A DNA stretch of 64,000 nt. It comes from a virus. The position numbers and the translations under genes were made by a program. Positions 11,595 to 45,387 of this stretch are shown here, one piece after another (position 1 is the stretch's first letter; each line of letters begins with the position of its first letter). The stretch is from IMG/VR virus record IMGVR_UViG_3300016675_000632, positions 1,010 through 65,009 of that record; one strand, 5' to 3'. The notes beneath the pieces were generated by a model. It did no database searches, was not told where the DNA came from, and worked only from the letters and a program-made list of their open reading frames with translations.

Positions 11595-12167
11595 TTATTT
11601 GTTGTAATGTTCTGGGTTGAACAAGTCATTTTTAGCAGCTTTTGCGTTGGCTATTGCTTCGTCTGCTGCTACAATTGTTTGGTTATCATTAACCAAATCC
11701 AAGCGTTCAACATCGGCAACGGTTGCAATTCTAATCCCCTTTTTCACAAAGTCCCAATAAACTACTTTTACAGCGTTTTGGGGTTCGTCTTGTAGTTGGG
11801 CAATTTTTAGAATTTGCGCGGCTGGTAGTTCCAAATCCGAAAGGGTGGCGGGCGTTACTGAGCCGTCATTTTTAACCAACTTGCAAAGCCCACTTTTTAG
11901 GGTTTGTTGGTATTCGGTAATGATTGGCTTGCAACGTTCAACTTCTGCCGCTTTTTCAATCTCTCGCTGCTTTTCTGCTAATATAATTGCCTGCGCTTTT
12001 TCTAAGGCTGTGGTGCGCGGTTTGCGCTCTTTTGGGGCTTCGTTTTGCCCGTCTGCCGTTTGTTGTTCTGCGCTATTTTCGCTTAGCGCGTTGTTGATAA
12101 TAACTGCCTCTGTAGGCTCGTTTTCGTTGTTGGTAACACCTGCTACCTTTTTGCTATCTTTAGCCAT
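11595..12167 (-). CDS. Protein with SH3/Sm-like barrel (WYL_2/DUF2693-like)
   Basis: LVKNDGSVTPAT...VYWDFVKKGIR resembles F.KKDG..R.A.GT...YWD..K.GWR. Confidence 0.5.
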   Translation of the reverse strand: MAKDSKKVAGVTNNENEPTEAVIINNALSENSAEQQTADGQNEAPKERKPRTTALEKAQAIILAEKQREIEKAAEVERCKPIITEYQQTLKSGLCKLVKNDGSVTPATLSDLELPAAQILKIAQLQDEPQNAVKVVYWDFVKKGIRIATVADVERLDLVNDNQTIVAADEAIANAKAAKNDLFNPEHYNK

Positions 12168-12214: not shown

Positions 12215-12352
12215 ATATTATACGGTAACAAATACAAAAGGTTGCAAATTGCGCAAAAAAATATACTTTTTTAGTACTTTTTTTTCTTTTTGCGTGTTAT
12301 CTTTTGCATTTGTTAGTACAAAGGTATAAACTTTATTTTGAACGTGCAAGGG
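12215..12352 (-). promoter_or_regulatory. ~140-bp promoter cassette, copy 2
   Basis: Near-identical to 8080-8218. Confidence 0.85.
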
Positions 12353-12518: not shown

Positions 12519-12914
12519 ATGTTAGCTTTCCCAAAAATCATAAAGTTGGCAACGGAAATGCGAGAAGCCCAAAAAAATTACTTCGCCGCAGTCAAGCAAA
12601 AAAATAAAAAATCGCAAGCCCCCGAACTATTGCACGCCTCAAAAACCAAAGAACGAGAGTTTAAGGAGGCGTTTAACAACTTTATACAAAGCGAAGAGTA
12701 TTCGGAAGTTTCAGACGGAACGACTACAAGCAAACATTTATTATTCAAGCTGGGCGTTACCCACTTGTTAGAGTTCCAAGAATTAGCGTTCAAAGAAATG
12801 CGAATTGGGAACCATACAGCCCACGTGATATATCAATCGCGGCAACAAGAAAAAGAATTTGATAACCTGTTGGAAGAACTAAACCCAACGCCAACCCAAC
12901 AAAGTTTATTCTAA
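12519..12914 (+). CDS. Hypothetical protein with an internally duplicated helical motif
   Basis: EMREAQK...SKTKEREF and EMRIGN...SRQQEKEF. Confidence 0.75.
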   Translation: MLAFPKIIKLATEMREAQKNYFAAVKQKNKKSQAPELLHASKTKEREFKEAFNNFIQSEEYSEVSDGTTTSKHLLFKLGVTHLLEFQELAFKEMRIGNHTAHVIYQSRQQEKEFDNLLEELNPTPTQQSLF

Positions 12915-12927
12915 TTTTTGGGGCAAA

Positions 12928-12960
12928 TTGCAACCTTTTCAAAAACTTGCCGTATATTTG
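12928..12960 (+). promoter_or_regulatory. Composite promoter of the tRNA cluster (TTGCAAC-N16-CGTATA overlapping TATATTTG)
   Basis: Both motifs read directly; Bacteroidota -7 box TAnnTTTG at 12953-12960. Confidence 0.65.
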
Positions 12961-13043
12961 CGCTATGTTATAAAAAAATAATGTGATAAAAGTAATTTTC
13001 GCTTGCGGGGGCAGTTGCCAAATTGTCGCCGCTTTTTTCTTTT

Positions 13044-13114
13044 GCTGCTGTGTCCGAGTGGTGAGGCGTTGGACTGCAAACCCAACTACGGGGGTTCAAA
13101 TCCCTTTAGCAGCT
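13044..13114 (+). tRNA. trnC: tRNA-Cys (GCA)
   Basis: Acceptor GCTGCTG/TAGCAGC, anticodon loop CTGCAAA, TTCAAAT T-loop, U73; no encoded CCA; A-C mismatch at 31:39. Confidence 0.9.
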
Positions 13115-13174
13115 CTCAAGATTTTTTTTTGGTTAAGTGATGTTGGAAATTTTTGTTAATAAATTTTTAATCGT

Positions 13175-13206
13175 AAAAAAGGCGCGTTGTGAAACGCGCT
13201 TTTTTT
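13175..13206 (+). terminator. Intrinsic terminator with GUGA tetraloop
   Basis: GGCGCGTT-GTGA-AACGCGCT plus T tract. Confidence 0.8.
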
Positions 13207-13289
13207 ATTAAAAAACCTGTTATAAATGCAACTTTGTTGCAACAATAAACATTTTTTTGCCTTTTTTCGCATATTTCGCAAATAAAATT

Positions 13290-13319
13290 TTGCGGTTTAA
13301 AAAAAACGTTTTACCTTTG
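13290..13319 (+). promoter_or_regulatory. Bacteroidota sigma-A promoter
   Basis: TTG-N19-TACCTTTG upstream of tRNA-Ser. Confidence 0.7.
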
Positions 13320-13374
13320 CTTCGTCAAACTTACCAAGTATGCCGATGCAAAAAAATAGTAAGTTGATAAAAAT

Positions 13375-13459
13375 GGAAAATTGGGCGAGTGGTAAGTCAG
13401 CAGTTTGCTAAACTGTAATATCTGTAAAGGTATCGTAGGTTCGAATCCTGCATTTTCCG
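13375..13459 (+). tRNA. trnS: tRNA-Ser (GCT)
   Basis: Acceptor GGAAAAT/ATTTTCC, loop TTGCTAA, long variable arm, GTTCGAATC, G73. Confidence 0.9.
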
Positions 13460-13465
13460 CGAGAG

Positions 13466-13680
13466 AGGCAAAGCAAATAGGATAAAGTGTTTTGTATAAA
13501 ACACATCAGCAACTAAAATCGCAATTTCTAAGGCCAACCAATTTATCCTATTTGCGCCTTATGTTCTACGAAGACTGCAACGCGGGGCGCATTTTACCGC
13601 GTTTGAAAGAAGCCTTGCGCAAACAGGGGTTAAGGCTGCAGTTTTGTTGGGGTGTAACCCGCGCCACATTTTAACCCTGT
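13466..13680 (+). ncRNA. Unidentified structured RNA between tRNA-Ser and tRNA-CAT
   Basis: 14-bp perfect stem 13473-13486/13542-13555, inner 7-bp hairpin, stems 13579-85/13597-603 and 13623-33/13671-80. Confidence 0.6.
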
Positions 13681-13703
13681 ATGAATGTGGATTTTTTGAA
13701 AAT

Positions 13704-13777
13704 GGTTTTGTAGCTCAGTAGGTCAGAGCAAGCCCCTCATAAGGGCGAGGTCGTAGGTTCAAACCCTGCCATAACCA
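13704..13777 (+). tRNA. tRNA with CAT anticodon (elongator Met or Ile2; not initiator)
   Basis: TAGCTCAG D-arm start, GCCC-CTCATAA-GGGC, GTTCAAA T-loop; one T-T mismatch in the acceptor stem. Confidence 0.85.
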
Positions 13778-13789
13778 CAAACAACCAGA

Positions 13790-14090
13790 ACGGGGGCTTT
13801 GCCCCCACTTACAATTCTTGTTAGCATTAAGCCCAGATTATAGCGGTTCATTAAGTTGTGCGCGGGGTCTGTCGGCGGTTTGTTCTTATAATTCTCTTTG
13901 GGGCTTTGCCACCAACTACAGACTTTTGCTAGCAAACAAAAAAAGAATTAAGCCCACGTTTCAAAAAAGCGTGTTGAGCGGATTTCTTTCCTCACTATAA
14001 ATTCACGAGGTTTTCTTACCTGTTTGTGGGGCTACTGACTTTGCGCCAGCGTAATTTGTTCGCTGACAAAAAAGAGCATAGCAGCGCACG
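13790..14090 (+). ncRNA. Possible structured RNA downstream of tRNA-CAT
   Basis: Several hairpins and a long-range helix; no credible ORF. Confidence 0.4.
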
Positions 14091-14095
14091 AAACG

Positions 14096-14122
14096 AGCCG
14101 TTGGTTTTACAGCGGCTTTTTT
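14096..14122 (+). terminator. Intrinsic terminator
   Basis: AGCCGTTG/CAGCGGCT stem plus T6. Confidence 0.75.
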
Positions 14123-14148
14123 ATGAAAATATAACTTTTTGTTTTGCA

Positions 14149-14252
14149 GGTGAGAGCGCGAAACCAAAAGATTGAAAATATAGCAAGATTGGAGTAATTA
14201 CCCGATTTTGTTTTTATACCCCGCTGTGCTCTCACCACTCGCGGGGTTTTTT
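14149..14252 (+). promoter_or_regulatory. Attenuator/antisense-like leader of the replication gene
   Basis: GGTGAGAGCGC (14149-59) is complementary to GTGCTCTCACC (14226-36), which lies inside the terminator hairpin CCCCGC/GCGGGG-T6. Confidence 0.6.
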
Positions 14253-14275
14253 ATTTTTATCAAATTCGTACAGCT

Positions 14276-15628
14276 ATGGCTATCAACCCTTACGTTGCGC
14301 TGGACGCGCTCAATTCAAACGATTATGTTTCTATAAATAAAAAATTGGCAGCTTATCTCGATAGTTGGGACAAAGCAGCTTTTGTGAGCTATTTGGTAGG
14401 GCAAAGACGGTATTTTGCCCAAAACGGGCAACTTACTTCAGACGGTTTTTTTTATGCTTGCGCAAAAAAAGTTGCGGCCGATATTTATATAAAAAAAAGA
14501 ACCCAAGAACACTACCTAGCTGAACTCAAAACAATGGGTTGGATTGTTACCGACCAGCGCGACAAGGACGGGAAGAGATACATTTTTTTGACCGTAAAAA
14601 TGTGCAAAGAAGTAGCTAATTTTTTGGCTTTAGATTGCGCAAAAATTGCGCAACCGATTGCGCAAAAAATGCGCAGTCCATCGCGCAAAAATTGCGCAAC
14701 CGATTGCGCAAAAAATGCGCACTTATTAGATACTAATATAACTAATGAAAAAGAATTAACTAAAGAAGAACTAGTGTGTGAGAAAAGCGCGGGCGCGAAA
14801 AACACACACACCAATTTTTTTTCTGAAAATTCAGAAAGCGAGGCGGAAAAATCGCCCATAGATGCGAGCGAAGAAAAAAGAAAAAAAGTTGCGGCAAAAA
14901 AAGAAAAGTTTTTGCAGGTTGCGCGTGGGTTCGCTTTTTTGGGTTGCGTAACCGACCAGATTAAAAAAACTGTTTGGGAGTATTTACAAGCTGCTGCCGA
15001 ATGGGATAAGGAAATAATAAGCGAAGAATGGGCTACAATTCAGCTGGAGTTGGTTAATGAACTATCCGTAAAATATACGCAAGTAGGCGTAATCAAAGAG
15101 ATTAAACGCTGCAAATTAGGGAGCCGCACTTGGAAAACTCCGCAAATAGGCTTTGTTGGCAATAACGACCTAAAAACATATTTACGTCAAACCCCTTGGC
15201 AGCCCACCGCAGCGCAGACCAACAATAGCCCCAAAAACAAACCCAGCAACGAATCGCCCACTACAGCCCCGAAAACCGATTACAAAAAAATTGCCGAAGA
15301 GCATTTTAGCCAAACCAAAAAAGCAGCCGAACCCGAAAAGCAAATTTTAACCAGCTTACAAGACTTGGAAAAATTGGTCAAAGAAAATAATATAAATTTT
15401 GAAACGACCGACAAGGGGGATTTGGGGCTAAACGCCACAAAATTAGCCCGCGTTTTAACGATTTCTAATTTTTCGGGTGTTGCCTCCGATTTGGTAAAAA
15501 AAGCCGCCAAAAACGATTTTTTAGCCCTTTGCGAAAAACAAAAAAACAACGAATACCCAATAAAAGCATTTATTGCCCTGTTGGAATTTTTAGCTAACCA
15601 CCACATAAACCAACCCGATGCAATTTAA
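14276..15628 (+). CDS. Replication initiator (lambda O-type layout: N-terminal winged helix, internal iterons)
   Basis: wHTH-like YAC...VAADIYIKKRTQEHYLAELKTMGWI; iteron cluster inside the gene. Confidence 0.75.
   Translation: MAINPYVALDALNSNDYVSINKKLAAYLDSWDKAAFVSYLVGQRRYFAQNGQLTSDGFFYACAKKVAADIYIKKRTQEHYLAELKTMGWIVTDQRDKDGKRYIFLTVKMCKEVANFLALDCAKIAQPIAQKMRSPSRKNCATDCAKNAHLLDTNITNEKELTKEELVCEKSAGAKNTHTNFFSENSESEAEKSPIDASEEKRKKVAAKKEKFLQVARGFAFLGCVTDQIKKTVWEYLQAAAEWDKEIISEEWATIQLELVNELSVKYTQVGVIKEIKRCKLGSRTWKTPQIGFVGNNDLKTYLRQTPWQPTAAQTNNSPKNKPSNESPTTAPKTDYKKIAEEHFSQTKKAAEPEKQILTSLQDLEKLVKENNINFETTDKGDLGLNATKLARVLTISNFSGVASDLVKKAAKNDFLALCEKQKNNEYPIKAFIALLEFLANHHINQPDAI
14636..14721 (+). repeat. 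Iteron cluster (probable origin)
   Basis: 39-bp direct repeat 14637-14675/14683-14721, giving four YGCGCAAAAAWTGCGCA units, followed by an AT-rich tract. Confidence 0.75.
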
Positions 15629-21358: not shown

Positions 21359-21384
21359 GCCCCGCATCAAATGCGGGGCTTTTT
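21359..21384 (+). terminator. Intrinsic terminator
   Basis: GCCCCGCAT/ATGCGGGGC plus T5. Confidence 0.8.
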
Positions 21385-21485
21385 CATTTATTTTTGCCCA
21401 AATTTTGCATTATTTTATAATTTTTGTATCTTTGTGCAACCTTTTCATAGATAAGCCCGTATAAGCCTAAAAAATACAAAAATAA

Positions 21486-22061
21486 ATGAATTATCCTTAT
21501 ACAGTCGTTATTGCCACGTCCAAAAAAAACGAAGATACCGAAGAGGTAGAAAAATATCATCAAGTCTATAAATCGCACCCCAGCGAGGTTTTTTTTGACA
21601 TAGAAGATGCTAAAGATTTTGCCCAAGAATTTCTAAAGAAAAAGGCAGAAAAAAGAGTTATAGAGCCGCGACCTCACCGCTTATTGCCCGTTGTTCGCAT
21701 TGGCAATAAAACAGAGCGAGAGTTCAAAATTCACCCAGCACACAAAAAAAGGCAAAAGTCCGAATATGATAGCGATACTTGCCGCTATTCGTTTATAACG
21801 ACTTCTTTAATTAGGATTGAGCCTGTAGCCACAAGTGGGCTTGCGTATTGGGATTTTCACCAAGACTATGTTTATATTTTGCCTGTTGGCTTTGAGCCTG
21901 CCTTTATTAGGCTTTTCCGCTTACAAAATAAAGTAACTGTATTATCCGAAAGCACGACCAAGTTATTGCGAGATGCAGCCGAAAAATCAAAAAAAGATAA
22001 TCATAATTGGGTAGTAAAAAGCCCAAAAAATAAAGACGGGGAAGAACCCGCCGAAGTATAA
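21486..22061 (+). CDS. Hypothetical protein in a stand-alone (moron-like) unit
   Basis: ORF track; own promoters TATCTTTG (21427-34) and TGCAAC-N17-CGTATA (21435-63). Confidence 0.75.
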   Translation: MNYPYTVVIATSKKNEDTEEVEKYHQVYKSHPSEVFFDIEDAKDFAQEFLKKKAEKRVIEPRPHRLLPVVRIGNKTEREFKIHPAHKKRQKSEYDSDTCRYSFITTSLIRIEPVATSGLAYWDFHQDYVYILPVGFEPAFIRLFRLQNKVTVLSESTTKLLRDAAEKSKKDNHNWVVKSPKNKDGEEPAEV

Positions 22062-22277: not shown

Positions 22278-22415
22278 CCCTTGCGCAGAAAAAATAAAGT
22301 TTATACCTTTGTTGCAACAAATGCAAAAGATAACACAAAAAATAAAAAAAGTACTAAAAAAAGTACATTTTTTTTACAAAATTTGCAACCTTTTGTATTC
22401 GTTACCGTATAATAT
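22278..22415 (+). promoter_or_regulatory. ~140-bp promoter cassette, copy 3 (inverted relative to copies 1 and 2)
   Basis: Reverse complement of 8080-8218; similarity to copy 1 extends on both sides. Confidence 0.85.
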
Positions 22416-44254: not shown

Positions 44255-44322
44255 TTTTTTATTCAACCCATAACGAAAGGCGAGGCTTGCGCCTTGCCTT
44301 TTTAATTAAACCGTTTTTAATT

Positions 44323-45387
44323 ATGCAATTGCTAGAAATCACCTATCAAACCGAAAAGAAAATTTATGTTAGCGGTCGGATAAAAAAACAAATCGTTAAG
44401 CTAAGTTTCTGGTATCCCGAAACGCCCAAAGAAATCAACCTAGAAGATTATCAAAAAGCTATAACTGCTACCCAAAAAATGCCCTTATTTTGCAAGGTTA
44501 TTTTGGGTTTCAAATTCGCCAAAGACGTGCCAGCCGTAGAGCGTACCGATAACTTTAATTTTAATAGATGCACAGCAGCAGAAAAGCAGCAAGTTTATGC
44601 ATCTATTAAAAACATTTTATTGCCCCTCCTAAAAATAAAAAAGCTACCTTTGGGGGCAGCTGATATATTTGGAGAGAAAATGCCAACAATAGAACGTTTT
44701 GAGGCTGTAAGCGAAAAAGATTTATCTTTTATGGTTGATGCTGACGTTATGGAATTTCTGCCTGTTAATGATTTAATAGACTTGGTAAAAGTTGTTCTTT
44801 ATAATATATCCGATGCTTTTATCTTACAAAAAACCGAAGGTTTGAGCCAAACGGAAGCGCAGGAGGTTTTAGAGGGCGAGAATGTTATACACCTTTCCTA
44901 TACCGATAAGCAAACTAAGCTAGTAACCAATCGCATTTTCTACCTGCCTTTTGAAAAAGTAAAATCTTTTTACGATAAAATTATCGTAGATGTGATAAAA
45001 GCCAATGCGGGCAAATCAGAGAACGAACAAAAAACTGAAGCCCAATTGAAACGGGAAAAATTATCTAAAACGATACATACTAATTCTTTTCCCGATTACA
45101 TAGCTTGGGACGCTACAACAGCGTTATTTTTTAACGATATGTTGGGAGAAAAAAAGGTAAGCGAAAGTAAAGCGTTAGCCGCTCTACTTGCCGCGCTTTG
45201 TGTGGAGATTGAAACGTTAGAACCTTTGGTAGAAAAGCAGGTTTTGCCCCGTCCAACAGAAGAAATTAGAAAAGAAACGGAGTTGCTTATTGAGCTATTT
45301 GAGCAAAAATTAACAATGGATTGGGTGCATAAAATTAGGTTTTTTTTTTCGCATACATATCAGCTTTACAAAACACACACGCTTTAG
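44323..45387 (+). CDS. Tail assembly chaperone (gpG-like)
   Basis: Tail operon; a T10 slippery tract (45340-49) near the C-terminus (RFFFS). Confidence 0.7.
   Translation: MQLLEITYQTEKKIYVSGRIKKQIVKLSFWYPETPKEINLEDYQKAITATQKMPLFCKVILGFKFAKDVPAVERTDNFNFNRCTAAEKQQVYASIKNILLPLLKIKKLPLGAADIFGEKMPTIERFEAVSEKDLSFMVDADVMEFLPVNDLIDLVKVVLYNISDAFILQKTEGLSQTEAQEVLEGENVIHLSYTDKQTKLVTNRIFYLPFEKVKSFYDKIIVDVIKANAGKSENEQKTEAQLKREKLSKTIHTNSFPDYIAWDATTALFFNDMLGEKKVSESKALAALLAALCVEIETLEPLVEKQVLPRPTEEIRKETELLIELFEQKLTMDWVHKIRFFFSHTYQLYKTHTL

Follow-up and report, generated by a model that had tools for sequence, protein, structure and literature searches.

Does the spacer between two tRNA genes of this phage hold one structured RNA, or is a smaller unit kept there? 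The preliminary description of this DNA proposed a single structured RNA of about 215 nt. We analyzed a window of 64,000 nt (the whole stretch of DNA, in whose positions all coordinates are given). The spacer between tRNA-Ser and tRNA-Met is 243 nt long (13461-13703) and consists of two unlike parts. The first is a hairpin of about 95 nt, which we call hairpin 1 (13465-13560). The second is a segment of about 136 nt (13563-13698) that differs from strain to strain. It is plausible that the original proposal is partly right and that the locus holds a transcribed, tRNA-flanked structured element of ~95 nt, not ~215 nt.

Phage record and locus

The source is a 65,340-base IMG/VR virus record. It is classed as linear and is 68% complete, and the window is nearly all of it. 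The phage is uncultured and was retrieved from freshwater metagenomes. Its genes for a replication initiator, a large terminase, and a tape-measure-like protein identify it as a tailed phage and bear out the phage setting that had been claimed for the locus.

The spacer lies within a 2.1-kb gene-free region. The region extends from the end of a leftward gene at 12167 to the start of the rightward replication-initiator gene (14276-15628), and it contains a 131-aa ORF (12519-12914). It also contains three tRNA genes, all on the + strand. The tRNA-Cys gene (13044-13115) was found by ARAGORN and Rfam. The flanks of the spacer are tRNA genes, as had been claimed, and both programs agree on them. 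The tRNA-Ser(GCT) gene (13375-13460; Rfam tRNA score, 55.4 bits) does not encode CCA and is kept in three related sequencing runs described below (X3, X4, and X7). The tRNA-Met(CAT) gene (13704-13778) has an Rfam score of 62.2 bits.

The Rfam check covered the whole window at the gathering score and positions 12900-14300 at an E value of ≤10. It returned only the three tRNAs and chance-level hits outside the spacer.

Hairpin 1

Every helix that the preliminary description named, from the 14-bp stem to AGCCTT/AAGGCT, is present in the sequence where it was placed. The helices of the first part make up hairpin 1 on the + strand. It contains a 5-bp closing stem, an AAA bulge, 14 perfect base pairs, a stacked 7-bp inner hairpin, and a one-sided loop of 37 nt. 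The perfect stem pairs GCAAATAGGATAAA (13473-86) with TTTATCCTATTTGC (13542-55) and is extended by AGGC (13466-69) and GCCT (13556-59). The inner hairpin spans 13487-13504 and pairs GTGTTTT (13487-93) with AAAACAC (13498-504). The loop (13505-13541) is single stranded and lies on the 3' side only. The closing stem is 18 to 19 bp overall, and the stacked helix is ~25 bp with the inner hairpin included. The whole unit is ~95 nt.

Hairpin 1 is far more stable than expected. The region 13461-13565 folds at -29.3 kcal/mol, compared with -15.2 kcal/mol for shuffled sequences (z, -5.15), and none of 200 shuffles folded as well. The minus strand folds nearly as well as the + strand (z, -4.09), so hairpin 1 may be a palindrome that matters as DNA. 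Perfect 14-bp inverted repeats within 100 nt number 3 in the 64-kb window versus 0.07 expected by first-order Markov resampling. The claim of a structured element is thus upheld for this half of the spacer, by its fold and by an inverted repeat beyond chance. The GC content of hairpin 1 is 35%, that of the neighboring noncoding DNA is 27%, and that of the window is 41%. Hairpin 1 is real and nonrandom, and it is the only part of the spacer that exceeds chance.

The two other perfect 14-bp inverted repeats of the window are AT rich and unrelated to hairpin 1. One (21383-21490) is an intergenic AT-rich pair before the gene at 21486. The other (44559-44611) is TTTAATAGATGCA/TGCATCTATTAAA and lies within the ORF 44287-45387.

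Hairpin 1 does not have the form of an intrinsic terminator. It lacks a U-tract, the letters that follow it are UAUGUUCU, and the terminator scan made no call. No determinant for cleavage by RNase III or another enzyme is recognizable in its sequence. In the spacer, ARAGORN at relaxed thresholds found no tRNA-like arm, no tmRNA, and no pseudo-tRNA; hits obtained at ps70 with introns allowed are artifacts that bridge the real tRNAs. The spacer also contains no copy of a tRNA end. Its best local alignments to tRNA-Ser, tRNA-Met, and tRNA-Cys on both strands score 7 to 9, which is no better than shuffled spacers (mean, 7.5; maximum, 12).

The second part of the spacer

The second part (13563-13698, + strand) is strain-specific filler of ~136 nt. 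It has a GC content of 49% (0.49, versus 0.41 for the window and 27 to 35% for the surrounding noncoding DNA). It contains the helices of the second half and the proposed pseudoknot. One helix pairs AACGCGG (13579-85) with CCGCGTT (13597-603). The last stem pairs ACAGGGGTTAA (13623-33) with TTAACCCTGT (13671-80) and has one bulged G. The pseudoknot would be formed by AAGACTGCA (13571-79) and TGCAGTTTT (13637-45), and AGCCTT (13611-16) and AAGGCT (13632-37) form a competing helix.

The segment 13563-13703 folds about as well as its shuffles do. It has a z of -1.36 on the + strand, where 23 of 200 shuffles are as good, and -1.10 on the minus strand, where 30 of 200 are as good. The helices of this part, the pseudoknot included, are thus not beyond expectation, and the claim of a structured element does not hold for this half. 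The whole 243-nt spacer has a z of -2.68 on the + strand and -2.64 on the minus strand. Since the second part contributes so little, the value of about -2.7 is owed to hairpin 1 alone.

The minimum free energy folds include a weak + strand hairpin at 13665-13697 (CCACATT/AATGTGG, followed by ATTTTTTG) directly before tRNA-Met. It was not called in the terminator scan because its loop is 11 nt. The unlike allele of X3 likewise ends with a small hairpin and ...GTGTGGATTTTTAAC. The segment also contains an imperfect direct repeat, with TGCAACGCGGGGCGCATTTTA at 13576-96 and TGTAACCCGCGCCACATTTTA at 13653-73.

Alleles of the spacer in related phages

Relatives were recovered as Logan contigs from four sequencing runs of four studies (X3, X4, X5, and X7), which were compared over 12900-14400 at a likeness of at least 80%. 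None of the listed runs that contain the stretch is recorded as RNA; those labeled RNA-Seq are probably DNA and have no bearing on expression.

X3, X4, and X7 keep 13220-13562 at ~95% identity. This stretch contains the promoter region, tRNA-Ser, and hairpin 1. Likeness resumes at 13699-13704, where tRNA-Met starts, and continues at ~95% identity from there onward. Between these points the depth of 13563-13698 is zero in all four related runs at ≥80% likeness. In the X7 allele, 13562 is joined to 13699 with TATAA between. In the X4 allele, 407 other letters stand between 13562 and 13704. In the X3 allele, unlike loose ends are found at 13562 and at 13704. The left breakpoint at 13562 is common to these three different alleles and lies 2 to 3 nt past the base of the hairpin 1 stem. 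Hairpin 1 travels with tRNA-Ser, and the remainder is a strain-specific insert that is not unusually structured.

The relatives keep the first part of the spacer and lack or replace the second, so the ~215-nt element is not one unit. The claim of a single structured RNA of this length is not borne out; its 3' 136 nt are strain specific and fold in an ordinary way. The pseudoknot fares no better. It lies wholly within the variable part, and it is absent or replaced in 4/4 related runs. A single structured RNA over the whole ~215 nt, whether a ribozyme, a riboswitch, or a GOLLD- or ROOL-like RNA with a pseudoknot, would be consistent with the existence of all of the helices and with the z of -2.7 for the 243-nt fold. 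This value comes from hairpin 1, however, and the spacer has neither an Rfam match at an E value of ≤10 nor an HDV-like topology. The X7-type allele, which lacks 13563-13698, already largely refutes this reading, and we consider it very unlikely.

X5 is different. Its 31-kb contig has 75 nt in place of the whole tRNA-Ser, hairpin, and tRNA-Met block (13373-13777), and the replacement is probably a single tRNA. The noncoding scaffold around the tRNAs (12914-13372 and 13778-14137) is kept in X5 at roughly 85 to 90% identity. The flanking genes of X5 appear to be different, because its sequence is unlike the window before 12914 and after 14270. The noncoding regulatory module seems to be more widely shared than its neighboring genes.

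Other spots of the region also vary. At 13842-13925, 82 nt are exchanged for 83 nt in X3. X7 lacks 107 nt at 13989-14097. At 14131-14243, X3 has 157 nt and X5 has 185 nt in place of ~100 to 110 nt, and X4 also has a replacement. This last spot covers a proposed antiterminator/terminator leader before the initiator gene.

Changes within hairpin 1

Three changes in hairpin 1 are found among the best-supported 40 of 192 differences in the relatives. Two are A>G substitutions, at 13482 and 13505, and the third is the loss of 1 nt at 13515. In a + strand RNA, the change at 13482 gives a G-U pair with T13546; on the opposite strand it gives a C-A mismatch. The remaining two changes are in the loop, and none of the three breaks a pair. 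Further changes in hairpin 1 may exist, since these 40 are the best supported of the 192. The observed changes fit the structure of a + strand RNA, as weak evidence; by our estimate, three benign changes would be expected by chance about 1 time in 5. Hairpin 1 is no better conserved than the neighboring promoter region, because the relatives are only ~5% diverged there.

With such close relatives (~95% identical over the whole noncoding region), retention of hairpin 1 carries little weight. Hairpin 1 might then be a functionless, neutral palindrome, such as the remnant of an old insertion, that was retained through recent divergence. The lack of homologues elsewhere would fit this. It is very improbable, however, that chance would produce a perfect 14-bp arm that extends to 18 to 19 bp and stacks on a 7-bp hairpin, and the homology breaks respect the boundary of hairpin 1 in three alleles. 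We regard a neutral origin as unlikely.

The shared breakpoint raises another explanation. Hairpin 1 could be a recombination site that acts as DNA or single-stranded DNA (attC-like or another folded site), with cassettes exchanged just 3' of it. Three different alleles (a deletion, a 407-nt replacement, and other sequence) start exactly after 13562, and the palindrome folds on both strands. Against this, the 65-kb record (68% complete) shows no tyrosine or serine recombinase, integrase, resolvase, or PF00589 match. No attC core sites (R'' RYYYAAC and R' GTTRRRY) are present in 13455-13575 on either strand, and there are no copies of tRNA ends and no flanking direct repeats. The right boundary is the start of tRNA-Met, as expected from homologous recombination in conserved flanks, and the DNA symmetry is lost with 13482 A>G. 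Such recombination would explain the shared breakpoint at 13562 equally well. We judge a dedicated recombination site to be distinctly improbable.

Coding potential

The preliminary description had named a 60-aa ORF (13492-13674) as the alternative that would overturn a noncoding reading. The ORF exists on the + strand with a TTG start, and it was rejected as a gene. Its start lies inside hairpin 1, and the frame crosses the point where homology breaks off. The X7-type allele would shorten it to 32 codons, and the frame would then extend into tRNA-Met. No homologue came from a word-indexed search, and an exhaustive one with HMMER returned just two hits, as multistretch matches to proteins of 570 and 890 aa. 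The 570-aa protein has only subthreshold Pfam stretches, and the 890-aa protein is a leucine-rich-repeat protein.

The minus strand contains a 36-aa ORF (13669-13559) with an ATG start, almost wholly inside the variable cassette. Both of these frames are open, and either could in principle encode a small protein. Neither has a Pfam match, however, and gene callers placed no gene here on identical ENA and Logan contigs. A small protein is extremely unlikely.

Proposed transcription and processing

A motif scan of the + strand found a promoter-like site (13290-13319) that lies 55 nt before tRNA-Ser. It reads TTG-N19-TACCTTTG and is of the Bacteroidota -33/-7 type. It has the same form as repeated early promoters at 22281-22311 (+ strand), 12319-12349 (- strand), and 8185-8215 (- strand); the promoter-like sites of the window have the form TTG-N19-21-TACCTTTG. 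The window contains 11 occurrences of TACCTTTG versus 3.0 expected, and 0 of 100 shuffles reach 11. We take TACCTTTG to match the TAnnTTTG -7 element of Bacteroidota sigma-A promoters, and this match suggests a freshwater Bacteroidota host. The motif makes 13290-13319 a putative promoter.

The first intrinsic-terminator-like site downstream of the promoter is at 14095-14125 on the + strand. It contains a 9-bp stem with 5 GC pairs and a T-run. The terminator scan called its stem at 14095-14118 and no + strand terminator between 13320 and 14095. The unit before this one ends at a terminator (13182-13199) behind tRNA-Cys. The simplest reading of these signals is one transcript from ~13327 to 14125, which would contain both tRNAs, the spacer between them, and ~320 nt of additional noncoding RNA. 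The claims that the element is noncoding, is flanked by tRNA genes, and lies within a plausible single transcription unit are supported.

A symmetric hairpin (TAAAAAAGGCGCGTT/AACGCGCTTTTTTTA) lies at 13174-13207 behind tRNA-Cys, with A and T runs on its two sides. It looks like a bidirectional terminator that separates the tRNA-Cys and tRNA-Ser units.

We propose that the spacer is a transcribed segment within a small phage tRNA operon, in the order promoter, tRNA-Ser, spacer, tRNA-Met, noncoding RNA, and terminator. An RNase Z-type cut behind the CCA-less tRNA-Ser and an RNase P cut at the tRNA-Met 5' end would free an RNA of 243 nt, of which the first ~95 nt alone would be the selected unit. 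The paired 5' and 3' ends of hairpin 1 and its stacked helix of ~25 bp may resist exonucleases, and the unstructured remainder would be trimmed. Hairpin 1 may also be a processing site for a double-strand-specific (RNase III-type) enzyme that parts the two tRNA precursors. It would act in cis to separate and stabilize the tRNA precursors, and it would persist as a small stable by-product RNA. The slot between the conserved units would be rewritten repeatedly through recombination among related phages. The release by tRNA processing that had been suggested for the element is thus retained, as a proposed step, for an RNA containing hairpin 1; it is not retained for one structured unit of ~215 nt.

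The anatomy and stability of hairpin 1, its retention, the replacement of the rest of the spacer, and the lack of a known family are observed directly. The transcription, the processing steps, and the cis role of hairpin 1 are what we infer from them. We give about an even chance to the reading in which hairpin 1 either serves processing or stability in cis or is a stable by-product RNA, with the remainder of the spacer as strain-specific filler in a recombination-prone slot.

Hairpin 1 may instead be a small RNA or decoy that acts in trans, with its clamped 37-nt loop pairing to a host or phage mRNA or binding a host protein. It has a long closing stem and a large open loop, it is kept in three relatives, and it is at a position where tRNA processing would release it. 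Yet the loop has no complement longer than 11 nt in the 64-kb window, which is about the chance level. Two of the three observed changes in hairpin 1 are in the loop, the relative in X5 manages without hairpin 1, and there is no homologue outside a very narrow lineage in viral, metagenome, and genome collections. An action in trans is not the reading we would expect to hold. A bolder version of it is that hairpin 1 is the founder of a new class of phage small RNAs, which tRNA-processing enzymes of the host would free from a tRNA operon. Its loop would act in trans by antisense regulation or as a decoy for a host RNA-binding or defense protein, and the adjacent slot would carry interchangeable RNA cassettes that differ between strains. 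We consider this version quite improbable.

Searches for homologues

The collection of homologues that had been envisaged for the element yielded none in the viral, metagenome, and genome collections beyond the relatives that are ~95% identical across the region. Judged by the refuting conditions of the preliminary description, the result is largely negative. When 13000-14300 was compared with 50,697 phage records by BLAST in distant mode, only the tRNAs matched. Rep and TerL found no relatives among viral contigs, and the Rep alignment had no match among metagenome contigs. Homologues of Rep (P0001-P0003) are on contigs of 1.1 to 2.0 kb that stop 60 to 177 nt upstream of the gene. The contig with a 76%-identical homologue of the 131-aa gene is 1,255 nt long and breaks off within tRNA-Cys. 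Contigs with an identical 131-aa protein are uninformative because their DNA is 100% identical.

Exact patterns were made for the 5' arm of the hairpin with the inner hairpin, the 3' arm, the cassette hairpin, and the promoter region. They gave 0 true hits in viral contigs; there were three chance 17-mers, of which just one aligned, over 18 nt. Exact-pattern scans of genome contigs gave 0 matches. A two-arm pattern matched 34 loci in metagenome contigs, all of them unrelated AT-rich hairpins by BLAST.

The two-arm pattern recurrently picked up one near-identical locus of ~76 nt (AAATAGGATAAAGGATAGTGATTGTCTTCCCCC...TTTTACCCTATTT) that is unrelated to the phage element. It was found largely on assembly contigs, several of them labeled human gut. 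The set contains L012, L014-L020, L022, L023, L025, L026, L028, L029, L032, L034, L035, L037-L040, L042, and L043.

Comparison with known systems

To our knowledge, the phage T4 RNAs rnaC and rnaD have no known function. NC_000866 annotates both as small stable RNAs directly behind tRNA-Arg: rnaC is species 1 (139 nt), and rnaD is species 2 (119 nt). Like them, hairpin 1 is a candidate non-tRNA RNA of the ~100- to 140-nt class beside tRNA genes in a phage tRNA operon, from which it would be released. T4 rnaC also folds far better than its shuffles (z, -4.57). There is no sequence similarity, however (best BLAST E value, 1.2). T4 rnaC ends in a tRNA-like T-arm (GGGUUCGAAUCCC) and an acceptor-like closing stem, whereas hairpin 1 is without any tRNA-like feature.

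Theta ribozymes, which are of a minimal HDV-like kind and occur at phage tRNA 3' ends, have a nested double pseudoknot that contains P1, P2, P3, P1.1, and P4 (PMC10879173). Their cleavage site is within ±5 nt of the tRNA 3' end (PMC10879173). Hairpin 1 resembles them in its place directly behind a CCA-less tRNA, in its likely Bacteroidota phage, and in the proposed freeing of the tRNA 3' end. It differs in being a simple, long hairpin of ~95 nt without the nested double-pseudoknot topology. A scan with a relaxed HDV-like descriptor gave 0 candidates after tRNA-Ser, after tRNA-Met, or anywhere in 13461-13700. The descriptor called for a P1 of 6 to 7 bp, a P3 of 3 bp, and a P2 of at least 4 bp, with G-U pairs allowed and the start within ~±8 to 10 nt of the tRNA 3' end. 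The HDV-like covariance models of Rfam had no match within 13461-13703 at an E value of ≤10.

GOLLD and ROOL are RNAs of several hundred nucleotides that are often near tRNA genes in phages and prophages. Unlike them, the conserved unit here is only ~95 nt of a 243-nt spacer, and none of the existing Rfam models for them match. The suggested kinship with GOLLD, ROOL, or theta ribozymes was not recovered, at an E value of ≤10 in Rfam or as an HDV-like nested topology. Nothing points to a ribozyme or switch, and no small-ribozyme family of Rfam matched at an E value of ≤10.

RNase III processing hairpins are found in the early transcripts of phage T7 and in rRNA and tRNA operons. They are long and nearly perfect and lie between functional units. 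Hairpin 1 is like them in form, with ~19 to 25 bp and a bulge between the units of a putative polycistronic transcript. Its large one-sided loop of 37 nt is atypical for the T7 sites.

Variable segments are also known from T4-type phages. A nonhomologous block lies inside the tRNA clusters of T4 and T2L (PMC2330249). PeSLs are composite terminator and early-promoter motifs that flank protein-coding ORFs, and they are associated with modular shuffling in T4-type phages (PMC2839356, PMC4122927). As in T4-type hyperplastic regions, a short variable segment is swapped here among close relatives between conserved units, and the T4-type tRNA cluster is a plastic spot too. Unlike PeSLs, hairpin 1 includes neither a promoter nor a U-tract, and the cargo is noncoding, is 136 nt long, and contains no homing endonuclease gene in the present allele.

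The spacer is best filed, as a lineage-restricted case, among the structured non-tRNA RNAs or spacer elements of phage tRNA operons, and it is fairly ordinary. If hairpin 1 is made and kept as RNA, it would be a Bacteroidota-phage example beside the still unexplained rnaC and rnaD of T4. The allele comparison shows, at nucleotide resolution, that the slot separating a tRNA-linked hairpin from the following tRNA is rewritten in near-identical freshwater phages. It is a small, clean case of noncoding modular shuffling. Neither point is very surprising for a specialist, and the more exciting readings (a ribozyme, a switch, or a large structured RNA) are unsupported.

Possible replication origin

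Hairpin 1 was also considered as a replication origin and was rejected as unlikely; clear iterons sit inside the initiator gene instead. Four repeat copies with a period of 23 nt are found at 14611-14721, and they are built on the palindrome TTGCGCAAAAATTGCGCA. They look like a lambda-type origin, with iterons within the initiator gene.
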